DNA of 64,000 bases from Anaerolineae bacterium. Lineage in GTDB: Bacteria > Chloroflexota > Anaerolineae > Aggregatilineales > Phototrophicaceae. The translations under genes and the position numbers were made by a program. Position 1 is the stretch's first letter. Each line of letters starts with the position of its first letter. The notes beneath the pieces are model-generated. The model worked only from the letters and a program-made list of their open reading frames with translations, searched no databases and was not told the origin of the DNA. Positions 45,625-48,781 of this stretch are shown one piece after another. The stretch spans positions 57,104 to 121,103 of the forward strand of contig JAJEAA010000031.1 of the NCBI GenBank assembly GCA_022824365.1, written 5' to 3'.

Positions 45625-45690
45625 CGCGGCGTGGGCGACCAGGGCGGCGATGTTGGCAAGATCGCCGCCGGTCAGGATACGCGTGGACTC
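45625..45690 (-). pseudogene. Possible second, more degraded copy of a maeB/PTA-type 3' end
   Basis: GC-rich patch in AT-rich surroundings. Minus-strand translation reads RILTGGDLANIAALVAHAA. It shares gtgggcg, ggcggcgat and atcgccg strings with the 46134-46199 remnant. Similarity is weak. Confidence 0.35.
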
Positions 45691-45705
45691 TCCGCTTTGA
45701 TTCCG

Positions 45706-45714
45706 TGTTATACT
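45706..45714 (+). promoter_or_regulatory. Extended -10 element of small-protein copy 1
   Basis: TGTTATACT is homologous to the copy-2 element. The -35 is weak (TGGACT with 19-nt spacing). Confidence 0.35.
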
Positions 45715-45735
45715 CTAGGCGACACAGGAGGACAC

Positions 45736-45963
45736 ATGGCCACAGAGAGTTTACACAATCGGCTGCCAGCGGTGGAGCAATCGGTCGCCCGGCTTGAAGG
45801 CGCTTACGAGCATGTGGCGACTAAAGCCGACTTGGGAGACGTTAGGAGTGAGATCGCGACATTGGCTGCCAGAGTGCAGCTATTGCAGTGGATCACCGGC
45901 ATTGGTTTCACGGTCATCGCCGGTTTGCTCATCCATATGCTAGGAATAATTGCCTCGCTATAG
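45736..45963 (+). CDS. Small coiled-coil protein with C-terminal TM anchor (DUF1640/XhlA-like), copy 1
   Basis: 75 aa from ATG 45736 (AGGAGGA upstream). VARLEGAYEHVATKADL coiled-coil, then WITGIGFTVIAGLLIHMLGIIA TM helix. Paralogue at 46258. Confidence 0.65.
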   Translation: MATESLHNRLPAVEQSVARLEGAYEHVATKADLGDVRSEIATLAARVQLLQWITGIGFTVIAGLLIHMLGIIASL

Positions 45964-46010
45964 CGCTTGCGCCGGTGCGGCGAAATCCCCCTACCCTCGG
46001 TATCAAATCA

Positions 46011-46061
46011 GCGAGCGACTCACAGGGGCGCGTAGACACTGCCCGTCAGTCGCCCCTACAA
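46011..46061 (+). repeat. REP-C element (GCGAC...GTCGCCCCTACAA)
   Basis: gcgactcacag...cagtcgcccctacaa, the extended variant of the hairpin found at 46078. Confidence 0.65.
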
Positions 46062-46077
46062 TTGACACGCGGATTTC

Positions 46078-46104
46078 GGGCGACTCACAGAGTCGCCCCT
46101 ACAA
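46078..46104 (+). repeat. REP-C element
   Basis: gggcgact cacag agtcgccc hairpin followed by ctacaa. Confidence 0.8.
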
Positions 46105-46133
46105 ATCCTGAGGTTAAGCTGTACTACCCACCC

Positions 46134-46199
46134 CGCCCGTGGGCGTCGACGGCGGCGATAGCGACGATATCCTCGACATCATCGCCGGCAGCCCAGAAG
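46134..46199 (-). pseudogene. Decayed duplicate of the maeB 3' end
   Basis: Minus-strand translation reads FWAAGDDVEDIVAIAAVDAHGR. Intact MaeB ends LQAGDDVEDIVAIAAVAAMDAHAREG (46526-46600). Confidence 0.8.
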
Positions 46200-46207
46200 C
46201 GCGCAAA

Positions 46208-46236
46208 TTGACAGCTTTGAACCTGCTTGTTATATT
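46208..46236 (+). promoter_or_regulatory. Near-consensus sigma70 promoter of small-protein copy 2
   Basis: TTGACA (46208-46213), a 17-nt spacer carrying an extended -10 TG, then TATATT (46231-46236). Lies 22 nt upstream of ATG 46258. Confidence 0.55.
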
Positions 46237-46257
46237 GAGGGCGAAACAGGAGGACTC

Positions 46258-46461
46258 ATGGCAGCAGAGAGCTTGGAAAGCCGAATTGCGCCGGTAGAGA
46301 GATCAGTCGCGCGGCTTGAGGGCGCGTATGAGCATCTCGCGACAAAAGCCGACATCGCGGCCGTAAATGCCAAGCTGCAACTCTTGCAGTGGATCACCGG
46401 CACCGGCTTCACCATCATCGCCGGCTTGCTCATCCACATGCTAGGAATAATTGCCTCTTAG
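46258..46461 (+). CDS. Small coiled-coil protein with C-terminal TM anchor (DUF1640/XhlA-like), copy 2
   Basis: 67 aa with AGGAGGA upstream and a strong promoter-like element at 46208-46236. VARLEGAYEHLATKADI and WITGTGFTIIAGLLIHMLGIIA. Confidence 0.7.
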   Translation: MAAESLESRIAPVERSVARLEGAYEHLATKADIAAVNAKLQLLQWITGTGFTIIAGLLIHMLGIIAS

Positions 46462-46479
46462 CTTCGGCCCCGACGCTAC

Positions 46480-46504
46480 GGGCGACCCAAAGGCCGCCCC
46501 TACA
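46480..46504 (+). repeat. REP-C element
   Basis: gggcgacc caaa ggccgccc imperfect hairpin followed by ctaca. Lies 22 nt from the maeB stop. Confidence 0.7.
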
Positions 46505-46525
46505 TTTGATAGGTGGGAAGTCTGG

Positions 46526-48781
46526 CTACCCCTCCCGGGCGTGAGCATCCATCGCCGCAACCGCCGCAATCGCCACAATATCCTCAACATCATCGCCGGC
46601 TTGCAGGACGTGGACGGGCGCGCCCATGCCGAGCAGGATGGGACCGATGGCTTCGGCGTTGGTCAGGCGGGAGAGCAGCTTGTAGGAGATATTGGCCGCG
46701 TCCAGGTTGGGGAAGACCAGCACATTGGCGTCCTTGACCTGGCTGAAGGGATAGCGCTGCTCGATGATGTCAATGACGACGGCGGTATCGGCTTGCATCT
46801 CGCCATCGACCAGGATGTCGCCCCGGCGGGCGCGGACCTGCTCGACCGCTCGCCGCACCTTGTCGCTGAGGGGATGGGGCGTGGCGCCGAAGTTGGAGAA
46901 GGAGAGCATGGCCACGCGGGGATCCAAGCCCAGGGTCAGGGCGAAGTCGTTGGCCAGGATGGCGATCTCGGCCAGGGTTTCGGCATCGGGCTCGATATTG
47001 ACGGTGGCGTCGCTGAAGAGGTAGCTGCGCCCTTCGATGACCATCAGATAGACGCCGGCGGCCCGGGTCGCCCCGGCGAGCGTGCCGAAGACTTGCAGGG
47101 CTGGCCGTATCACTTCCGGGTACTCGTAGGTTAAGCCGCTGACCATGGCATCGGCGTCGCCATTTTTGACCATGAGGGAGGCGTAGTAGTTGCGCTGCCG
47201 CACCAGGGAGCGGGCTTTGTGCAGCGTCACGCCTTTGCGCCGCCGCAAGTCATAGAGCAGATCGCGATATTCGTACTGATTACGAGCCAGATAGTGATCG
47301 AAGCAATTCGGCTCATAATTCAAGCCCAGGCTATCGATGGTCGCCTGGATGCGTTCGGGGCGGCCCAGCAGGATGGGTTCGCCGATGCCTTCATCTCGCA
47401 CTTGCAAGGCGGCGCGGATGATTTTGGGCTCTTCGCCTTCGGGGAAGACGATGCGCTGACGCTGCCCGGCGCGAGCTAGATTGATGATATTCTGGCGTAC
47501 TTGACGGCCGCTGCCCTGCCGGTTGATGAGTTCTTGCTTGTAGTCGTCGAGGTCGATTTGTCGGCGGGCGACGCCGGATTGCATGGCCGCTTCCGCCACG
47601 GCTGGCGCCACCCAGAGCATGACGCGCGGGTCCAGCGGTTTGGGTATCAGATAATCAGCGCCGAATTTGATGGACTCCTGGCCGTAAGCCATGAGTACGC
47701 TGTCGGGCACATCTTCGTGGGCCAGCGCCGCCAGCGCTCGCGCGGCCGCCAGCTTCATCTCTTCGTTGATGCCGGTGGCGTAGACATCAAGGGCGCCGCG
47801 GAAGATGAAGGGGAAGCCGAGCACGTTGTTGACCTGATTGACGTAGTCGCTGCGGCCGGTGCCGATGATGGCGTCGGGGCGGACTTCCAGCGCCAGCTCC
47901 GGCATGATCTCGGGCGTGGGATTGGCCAGCACGAAGAGCAGCGGATTCGGCGCCATGCCCAGGATCATCTCCTGCGTGACCGAGCCGGCGATGGACAAGC
48001 CGATAAGGGCATCGGCCCCTTGCAGGGCGTCATGCAGGGTGCGGGCGTGGGTGGGAATGGCGAATTCGGTCTTGTAGATATTCATGTTGTCTTCGCGTTG
48101 ATGATGGATGACGCCGCGGGAATCAAGCATCAGGATATGCTCCCGGCCGACGCCAAGCTCCTTGAAGAACTTGCCGGTGGCGATCGCGCTGGCGCCAGCG
48201 CCGTTGATGACGACTTTGATGTCTTCGATGCGCTTGCCGGTGACCTCGAGGGCATTGATCAGAGCCGCGCCGGAGATGATGGCGGTGCCGTGCTGGTCGT
48301 CGTGGAAGACGGGGATATCCAGTTCTTCCTTGAGCCGCTCTTCGATCTCGAAGCATTCGGGCGCTTTGATGTCTTCCAGGTTGATGCCGCCGAAGGTGGG
48401 GGCGAGGGCTTTGCAGACTTCGATGATCTCGTCGGCGCTTTGCGACGTGATTTCGATATCGAAGACATCGACATCGGCGAATTTCTTGAAGAGCACGCCT
48501 TTGCCTTCCATGACCGGCTTGGAAGCCAGCGGACCGCGGTCGCCCAAGCCGAGGATGGCGCTGCCGTTGGAGATGACGGCGACGAGGTTGGCGCGGGCGG
48601 TCATTTCGTAGGCGGCGAGGGGGTCTTTGTCGATTTCGAGCACGGCTTCGGCGACGCCGGGCGAATAAGCCAGCGAGAGGTGCAGTTGGCTGTCGAGGGG
48701 TTTGGTGGGCGCGATCTGGATTTTGCCGGGTCGGCCGCGGCGGTGGTAATCGAGGGCTTCTTGGCGGGTGAAAGATGCCAT
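46526..48781 (-). CDS. maeB: NADP-dependent malic enzyme (malic enzyme + PTA-like domain)
   Basis: 751 aa. N-terminal malic enzyme (LSLAYSPGVAEA, FHDDQHGTAII, NGAGASAIA) fused to a phosphate-acetyltransferase-like C-terminal domain. Confidence 0.92.
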   Translation of the reverse strand: MASFTRQEALDYHRRGRPGKIQIAPTKPLDSQLHLSLAYSPGVAEAVLEIDKDPLAAYEMTARANLVAVISNGSAILGLGDRGPLASKPVMEGKGVLFKKFADVDVFDIEITSQSADEIIEVCKALAPTFGGINLEDIKAPECFEIEERLKEELDIPVFHDDQHGTAIISGAALINALEVTGKRIEDIKVVINGAGASAIATGKFFKELGVGREHILMLDSRGVIHHQREDNMNIYKTEFAIPTHARTLHDALQGADALIGLSIAGSVTQEMILGMAPNPLLFVLANPTPEIMPELALEVRPDAIIGTGRSDYVNQVNNVLGFPFIFRGALDVYATGINEEMKLAAARALAALAHEDVPDSVLMAYGQESIKFGADYLIPKPLDPRVMLWVAPAVAEAAMQSGVARRQIDLDDYKQELINRQGSGRQVRQNIINLARAGQRQRIVFPEGEEPKIIRAALQVRDEGIGEPILLGRPERIQATIDSLGLNYEPNCFDHYLARNQYEYRDLLYDLRRRKGVTLHKARSLVRQRNYYASLMVKNGDADAMVSGLTYEYPEVIRPALQVFGTLAGATRAAGVYLMVIEGRSYLFSDATVNIEPDAETLAEIAILANDFALTLGLDPRVAMLSFSNFGATPHPLSDKVRRAVEQVRARRGDILVDGEMQADTAVVIDIIEQRYPFSQVKDANVLVFPNLDAANISYKLLSRLTNAEAIGPILLGMGAPVHVLQAGDDVEDIVAIAAVAAMDAHAREG

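Follow-up and report, generated by a model that had tools for sequence, protein, structure and literature searches.

How can short pieces of accessory DNA be stacked against the end of a housekeeping gene without breaking that gene? The question is raised by maeB, the gene of an NADP-malic enzyme fused to a PTA domain, in a stretch of 64,000 nucleotides (nt) from an Anaerolineae bacterium of the family Phototrophicaceae (contig JAJEAA010000031.1, positions 57,104 to 121,103), called the window below. Beyond the 3' end of maeB two small genes on the plus strand, convergent with maeB, are set among sequences that resemble its last codons. A first-pass annotation of this DNA had taken the region for a hotspot where every integration restores maeB with a fresh end and moves the previous end farther out, or alternatively for a tandem duplication of a ~450-bp unit. 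The genome carrying the window is designated G000, other genomes of the genus G###, and extracted loci or contigs L###; the closest relatives of G000 are G073, G050, and G065. Coordinates of all features are collected in Table 1.

Comparison of maeB ends points to an answer: the end that maeB now uses is a foreign import, and the resident ancestral end has been pushed outward, where it persists as a remnant. The intact gene, whose product closes with ...DAHAREG*, ends at 46526 as first annotated, and maeB is present in 59 of the 61 genomes of the genus that were searched. Two nhmmer profiles were used, one built from the terminal 120 nt of the maeB genes of 32 relatives and the other from the maeB-end remnants of other genomes only. 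The first scored the intact end at E = 1e-35 and positions 46116-46189 at E = 4.5e-13, and the second matched 46122-46199 at E = 4e-15; the similarity to the maeB 3' end that had been noticed at 46134-46199 is therefore above chance by both. In the remnant, 9 nt are deleted and the stop codon is still in place. Hairpins of the repetitive extragenic palindromic (REP) type CGGGCGACTCACAGAGTCGCCCCTACAA occur at 46011-46061, 46077-46104, and 46479-46505, and over 25 exact copies of the REP 28-mer are spread through the G000 genome. Since a REP lies to the left of the remnant just as one lies to the left of the intact end, the true direct repeat is ~122 nt long (46077-46199 / 46479-46600).

The origin of the two copies can be read from their differences. 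When the remnant was compared with intact maeB ends, 62 of 66 positions agreed with G050 and 61 of 66 with G073, and only 53 of 66 with the end of G000 itself, which ranked 35th. In an alignment of the last 150 nt, G000 maeB equals that of G050 down to position 46587, with 0 differences over the ~90 nt before the switch of allele. From 46586 to the stop codon, ~13 of 60 positions differ from both G050 and G073; almost all of these changes are synonymous, such as GCG, ATT, and GTT codons where G050 has GCC, ATC, and GTC. Identity to G050 stands at 96% over the preceding 300 nt and at 79% over the last 72 nt. Because the remnant fits the ends of relatives better than the end of its own genome, and because the allele switches at 46586, the old end was displaced and the new one, a synonymously diverged allele, came with the inner cassette. 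The remnant differs from the G050 end at ~6% of sites, so the event was recent on the scale of the split between G000 and G050.

In what follows, T denotes the last ~70-100 nt of maeB together with the stop codon and the REP. The imported block spans the remnant junction at 46200 to 46586, and thus comprises exactly the inner cassette and one T unit. Its right-hand boundary coincides with the inner edge of T inside the 2.2-kb maeB gene, an argument that T was the one sequence which the incoming DNA had in common with maeB. Since maeB is G050-like over the 200 nt that precede T, the import is confined to T, and the same stretch gives no support to a G010- or G007-like donor for the 3' part of maeB.

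Table 1. Features of the maeB 3' region in the window, and remnants of the maeB end in related genomes
Feature	Position	Strand	Basis
CDF (cation-diffusion-facilitator) gene, conserved far border of the variable interval	42240..43268	-	Pfam Cation_efflux on orthologues
AT-rich three-gene cassette (188, 180, 271 aa), promoter-like site 45570-45597	43498..45597	-	Open reading frame (ORF) list, GC content
GC-rich patch upstream of outer small gene, possible strongly decayed older maeB-end remnant, unproven	45625..45690	-	
Outer small gene, 75 aa, outer-type lineage	45736..45963	+	ORF list, tree
Second, extended REP copy between outer small gene and remnant	46011..46061	.	REP 28-mer
Left copy of direct repeat, displaced ancestral maeB end: REP 46077-46104, stop codon 46124-46126, remnant coding 46127-46199	46077..46199	-	nhmmer
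Inner cassette: predicted promoter 46208-46236, ribosome-binding site, 67-aa coiled-coil/transmembrane gene 46258-46461, HLATKAD family, inner-type lineage	46200..46478	+	
Right copy of direct repeat: REP 46479-46505, spacer, stop codon, maeB 3' end	46479..46600	-	
Imported (foreign-allele) last ~60 nt of maeB	46526..46586	-	Alignment with G050 and G073
maeB, NADP-malic enzyme fused to PTA domain, intact, 751 aa	46526..48781	-	ORF list; Pfam malic, Malic_M, PTA_PTB
Remnant in G007, upstream of G007 small gene			E = 2e-17
Remnant in G073, adjoining CDF, beyond a 1.9-kb insert without small gene			E = 2.5e-13
Remnant in G058, 66 nt past maeB			E = 8e-21

How the end was exchanged is the next step. 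It appears just probable that the array was built by stacked cassettes, through host homologous recombination of units that carry a maeB end. The latest event can be read from the alleles: a foreign unit consisting of the inner cassette and its own diverged T recombined with resident maeB inside the highly conserved codons for ...LQAGDDV..., with a crossover between 46587 and ~46640. Since then maeB has ended in the imported T, and the resident T, displaced outward, is the remnant at 46077-46199. Such a topology results when a small circle, or 'ends-in' DNA, with no homology to maeB outside T undergoes one reciprocal (Campbell-type) crossover. The outer cassette may have been placed by a similar event before this one, and the patch at 45625-45690 may be the end displaced at that time. 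The machinery would be that of host homologous recombination, acting on circles excised by recombination of T with T or on transformed DNA. Repeated T copies would also allow unequal crossing-over, excision, and reshuffling, leading to different cassette orders in relatives. The first entry of cassettes into new targets, where exact duplications of 30-34 nt are seen, lies outside this mechanism.

The crossover falls in the longest identical stretch between the two T alleles, the conserved LQAGDDV codons. Such a location is favoured by homologous recombination, yet an att core would also lie there. With no site-specific recombinase available and the crossover in the only long identical stretch, host homologous recombination seems the most likely agent.

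Several points weigh against this reading. No donor was found for the inner unit. If T starts at 46600, perfect identity in the crossover zone may extend over only 14 nt, a short length for RecA and one typical of att cores. Where the 5' end of maeB is the target, in G003 and G010, the copy contiguous with the gene, not the displaced one, is relative-like; hence the signature of an imported end is not general. Local duplication followed by allelic replacement of the inner cassette and T could leave the same final pattern. Moreover, metagenome-assembled genomes can lose the genes of mobile elements, and a phage or plasmid could supply a recombinase in trans.

The last of these points bears on site-specific integration and accretion. 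A tyrosine or serine integrase, supplied in trans by an unassembled or transient element or since lost, would use the conserved 3' codons of maeB as attB, and the cassettes would be decayed remnants that have no integrase and carry attP and a replacement gene end, similar to cis-mobilizable elements (CIMEs). This explanation is considered unlikely, even though its topology is that of e14 in icd and of CIME accretion (PMC6379469, PMC5704250) and, as is seen in integrase systems, the crossover sits at the repeat edge nearer the gene. In E. coli, e14 and phage 21 supply icd with a substitute 3' end and leave the original as a displaced pseudo-end on the far side (PMC6379469), and synonymous changes are clustered in the last part of the host gene in both e14/icd and maeB. 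However, e14 is a prophage of ~15 kb that encodes an integrase and has a fixed att core, and the maeB unit is ~0.4 kb long, with one small gene, a variable repeat length, and no integrase found in the genome. Accretion has been described for CIMEs and integrative and conjugative elements (ICEs), as well as for elements of the integrative and mobilizable type (IMEs), with the ICESt1 family at fda as an example (Pavlovic 2004, as reviewed in PMC5704250); incoming elements insert beside the end that is still intact. Serial gene-end copies separate integrase-less modules in CIMEs and in the maeB array alike. Unlike the maeB cassettes, CIMEs are decayed ICEs or IMEs moved by the integrase of a related element; no such elements or integrases were found in the sampled genomes, and the small-gene family at maeB has many targets. 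The islands of Dehalococcoides, also a member of Chloroflexota, share the phylum and the tandem layout: several of them lie in tandem downstream of ssrA and are bounded by direct repeats of its 3' end (PMC3146451). They differ from the maeB array in their fixed repeats of 20 bp, in their size of 10-30 kb, and in a serine integrase (DsiB) module (PMC3146451). In its outcome the maeB array resembles these systems, and it is set apart by a ~0.4-kb one-gene unit, a variable repeat, many targets, and no apparent integrase.

Recombinase genes are sparse in these genomes. As the first-pass annotation had stated for the window, there is no integrase in the window or in the island. Scans with Pfam profiles gave a single Phage_integrase match in G000, a ~372-aa Xer-like tyrosine recombinase at C3:17853 that is kept in every relative searched, and no match in G000 to Resolvase, RVT_1, Ku, DDE_Tnp_1, or Y1_Tnp. 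A gene of the Resolvase family is missing from G000 and from 11 of the 12 relatives searched. G007, G009, and G010 are without serine recombinases, G074 has only a single conserved tyrosine recombinase, and in the complete genomes of G008 and G074 the one tyrosine recombinase of each lies 45-56 kb from maeB. The starts of the remnants can be read either way. They cluster at profile positions 44-51 in three genomes (G000, G007, and G073), as an integrase would predict, and are found at 11, 35, and 46 elsewhere, a comparison confounded by decay and shared ancestry; overall, remnant lengths vary, with starts at 11, 35, 44, 46, and 49-51. Against integration stands also the finding that the same small-gene family lies between duplicated ends of more than 10 different genes, too wide a range for an integrase with a single specificity. 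These scans give no support to a dedicated integrase or att system.

The two small genes themselves bear on the alternative of local duplication. In each interval a single small gene is accompanied by a sigma-70-like promoter and a REP, in agreement with the first description of promoter, small transmembrane-protein gene, and REP; the predicted inner promoter, TTGACA-17-TATATT, has 11 of 12 consensus matches. The two proteins, of a small tail-anchored coiled-coil type, begin with an amphipathic segment that contains the motif LEGAYEH(L/V)ATKAD and have a predicted transmembrane helix at the C-terminus. The inner and outer genes share 70% of residues and 77% of bases; the pair has a dS of ~0.94, saturated at synonymous sites, with a dN/dS of 0.16, and the dN/dS values of 0.05-0.16 for the small genes correspond to purifying selection. 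The outer gene is nearest to maeB-linked copies in G010 (88% of amino acids) and G007 (84%), and in the tree it groups with G007 and G010 (support 87); the inner copy stands alone on a long branch and is not sister to the outer. In a protein search, the 67-aa inner type and the 74/75-aa outer type formed separate, widespread allele lineages, with the 67-aa lineage in many other assemblies; the exact inner protein had no record in a search for other contigs encoding it. The three closest relatives are without this small-gene subfamily.

The second of the two mechanisms first put forward, tandem duplication of a ~450-bp resident unit in recent times, is excluded by this divergence: the dS of the cargo is ~0.94 and the remnant is only ~6% from the ends of relatives, the working end is foreign, and the inner copy is not sister to the outer. 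There is also a version with two steps. Unequal crossing-over of gene-end copies flanking a resident cassette would have been followed by import of a divergent allele that replaced the inner cassette and the gene end. Amplification of this kind is open to any segment between repeats; the two units have their junctions in register, two inner-type copies stand in tandem in L147, a 674-nt tandem pair occurs at another locus of the family (L101), and maeB is visibly mosaic between species. Even so, two events are needed where one suffices, the boundary of the import would have had to fall by chance within ~14-50 nt at the T edge of a 2.2-kb gene, and the remnant, at ~6% from G050, is far younger than the divergence of the cassettes (dS ~0.94). 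This course of events is regarded as distinctly improbable.

Important information on the movement of these cassettes may be found at other loci of the family. The small-protein family was detected in 20 of 24 genomes of the genus searched and in 0 of 16 genomes of other families of the order, and several genomes have at least 5 matches; it thus appears genus-restricted and multi-copy, and no recent pairs of paralogues were seen inside one genome. Direct repeats of 29-122 nt with 75-97% identity flank 18 of 46 distinct family loci (~39%), against 4 of 300 random genome intervals (1.3%) taken as a control. The repeats are duplicated ends of neighbouring genes, and the number of distinct targets is above 10: maeB at its 3' end and, in G003 and G010, at its 5' end, the 3' ends of at least 4 other genes, a dapA-like 5' end, and terminator hairpins. 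In G000, an exact 30-nt target duplication of a terminator hairpin at the C3 locus can be compared with an empty site in G050, and an exact 34-nt duplication of a gene 5' end at the C22 locus with an empty site in G074. In the tree, cassettes from distinct targets are neighbours: the maeB copy of G009 groups with a G005 copy located elsewhere, and the maeB copy of G074 with one that adjoins another gene in G024. In G003 (L109:1122-1748, G003:C126) a two-gene cassette was found at the 3' end of an ABC-permease gene whose 3' end holds ~40 nt homologous to the dapA-5' repeat that flanks relatives (L032:1710-1788, G015); this cassette has carried along the flank of a previous site. Taken together, the foreign flank of ~40 nt and the tree neighbours at different targets indicate that cassettes have moved.

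Such exact duplications recall transposition. IS1634-group insertion sequences produce variable direct repeats of tens to hundreds of bases and have a DDE transposase and inverted ends; the repeats around the present inserts are likewise variable in length, and there is no DDE transposase and there are no inverted ends at the cassettes. A transposon-like insertion with long staggered cuts would make both gene-end copies a target-site duplication of resident DNA flanking a non-autonomous cassette. The exact 30-nt and 34-nt duplications with matching empty sites at two other loci, and the excess of flanking repeats at family loci (~39% as against 1.3% of controls), are what this explanation expects. 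At maeB, however, only one of the copies derives from resident DNA; comparison of cassettes from different targets showed neither conserved termini nor inverted repeats, no DDE_Tnp_1, Y1 transposase, or reverse transcriptase was found in G000, and recent paralogue pairs within a genome are missing. For the maeB array it is thus highly improbable, and the missing termini and transposases likewise speak against DDE or HUH transposons, IS1634-like and MITE-like elements among them. Retroelement insertion by target-primed reverse transcription was also rejected, since G000 has no RVT_1 match and the inserts include their own upstream promoter.

Related genomes hold the array in different states. 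Across the genus a conserved backbone consists of orf386, CDF, a variable interval, and maeB. The interval ranges from 97 nt (G006) up to ~4 kb, and its contents differ by species: nothing, one small gene (G009, G010, G074, and G007), or a 263-aa secreted protein, with distant homologues of the 188/180/271-aa cassette in G003, G007, G058, G065, G071, G074, and G054. Some relatives carry an interval gene that looks RhuM-like from its sequence, and some a 620-aa gene that looks ATPase-like. Most relatives have the site empty or filled differently. The interval between CDF and maeB is therefore a hypervariable, genus-wide insertion hotspot and not an ancestral conserved locus, the arrangement that would have spoken against the first-pass annotation. 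What stands of that annotation is the hotspot in which a gene end is regenerated and the old one displaced, with its topology of a resident remnant and an imported working end, its arrays with two or three copies, and its empty sites; the site-specific integration into an att site that it proposed is not supported.

The sister strain shows how the array varies at short range. Two independent assemblies of it, L145 and L146, are ~97% identical to G000 across the array, which rules out an assembly artefact. Both have the order CDF, three genes (181/182/184 aa), outer, inner, maeB, and G000 has the outer and inner copies in the same order. L148 has the opposite order of inner, outer, maeB, and L147 has a frameshifted inner-type copy, an intact inner-type copy, and then maeB. 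Only an inner-type copy is present in L149 and L150 and only the outer in G007, G009, G010, and G074, and most genomes have none. Three profile-significant copies of the maeB end were found in each of L145, L147, and L148, those of L145 scoring E = 7e-36, 3e-13, and 3e-10. Homology between G000 and L145 breaks at 45718, in the 5' region of the outer small gene, and near 43352; to the left of 45718 the two differ in the promoter region and in the three-gene cassette. Hence the hotspot turns over even between near-identical strains. Window positions 43352-45718 correspond to L145:795-2963, where a cassette of 184/182/181 aa stands in place of that of 188/180/271 aa, a strain-level replacement.

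The three-gene cassette is cargo of the same hotspot. GC content drops to 0.44-0.51 from ~45600 leftwards to ~43300, which bears out the earlier description of an AT-rich cassette starting just beyond the outermost copy. Direct repeats flanking it were searched for, and none were found.

Of the five observations in the first-pass annotation four are borne out; the outermost copy itself is less certain. The patch at 45625-45690, which had been proposed as a third and weaker copy, was missed by both nhmmer profiles even at E <= 10. Against a background of random segments drawn from the same genome, its Smith-Waterman DNA alignment with the inner remnant has P ~0.0035, its best-of-six-frames protein score with the MaeB C-terminus P ~0.006, and its comparison with the intact maeB end P ~0.2. 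A third copy is thus not demonstrable in the window, with no profile match and pairwise P of ~0.004-0.006. L145, however, has a significant maeB-end copy (E = 3e-10) at the same position, and the patch aligns with it colinearly at ~60% identity. The patch is plausibly an old maeB-end remnant, and what the window alone holds is suggestive and does not establish it.

When the whole G000 genome was scanned, 35 local pairs of low-copy direct repeats emerged, and in 26 the repeats measure 28-150 nt. Judged by eye, ~20 pairs enclose islets of 0.3-3.4 kb with repeats of 40-140 nt that resemble the end of the adjacent gene, often at lower GC content than the flanks. Examples are C22:9869-11373, C3:29187-32115, C28:36634-37409, C35:13468-14980, C17:43170-43720, C37:93021-94912, and, in the window, an NYN islet at 50050-51061. 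Their cargo, judged from sequence, presumably includes a DinB-like polymerase, a DNA methylase-like protein, NYN-like and membrane proteins, and toxin-antitoxin-like pairs. It is a real possibility that a mechanism driven by host recombination is general in the lineage. More tentatively, and less probably than not, the genus may have an integrase-independent cassette system, in which promoter-plus-gene cassettes and islets of 0.3-3.4 kb use a host gene end as a portable homology arm and insert, excise, stack, and reshuffle by host recombination alone; the maeB array would then be the clearest example of a genome-wide rule, an 'integron without an integrase'.

The maeB locus is of value because it keeps an internal record, in its ancestral remnant and its imported end, of how accessory DNA piles up behind a housekeeping gene that stays intact, and such stacking occurs in this lineage apparently without the usual integrases and transposases. 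If host recombination alone drives it, gene-end duplicates would be a general and overlooked route for the gain, loss, and shuffling of islets, and a practical marker for insertion hotspots and defence-gene slots in metagenome-assembled genomes. The analysis also defines a genus-specific, multi-copy family of small proteins, predicted to be located in the membrane, that is strongly tied to such insertions.

The two small proteins and the three cassette proteins gave nothing above threshold with Pfam and PADLOC, and Rfam had no match over 45300-46800. The ldr/rdl 'long direct repeats' and the ibs/sib loci of E. coli are tandem type I toxin-antitoxin units of ~0.5 kb, each with its own promoter and a small membrane protein. 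The maeB units are likewise on the ~0.5-kb scale, with a promoter and a small membrane protein gene in tandem; they differ from ldr/rdl in that Rfam shows no antisense RNA, the proteins are 63-108 aa long with a coiled-coil head, and the units are separated by the end of the neighbouring gene.

Other observations concern maeB and its surroundings. Along 46526-47925, maeB is mosaic across species: identity to G065 falls from 94-97% to 79-83% and then recovers, and the identities to G073 and G050 follow the inverse pattern. This mosaicism indicates frequent homologous recombination between species. In G058 (G058:C3, L058 / L130) the remnant is 120 nt long and no gene lies between it and the intact stop codon; it may have been left as a scar when a cassette was excised, or it may be a duplication and nothing more. 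The independent short-read contigs L143 and L144 end ~170 nt past the outer small gene, at the REP/repeat region, so the tandem array is hard to assemble from short reads.

The 5' end of maeB serves as a target as well: in G003 (L034:1211-2002) and G010 (L105:1000-1557), the first 69-82 nt of the gene stand in two copies, with another member of the small-gene family between them. The end of the cassette that faces maeB holds a promoter-like TGGTAAAAT, which could drive the intact maeB copy. In G013 (L026:1108-1703), an extra acidic ORF of ~70 aa (MSNPNPLPK...REIERELEAEGRSSN) with an antitoxin-like look stands upstream of the small transmembrane gene.

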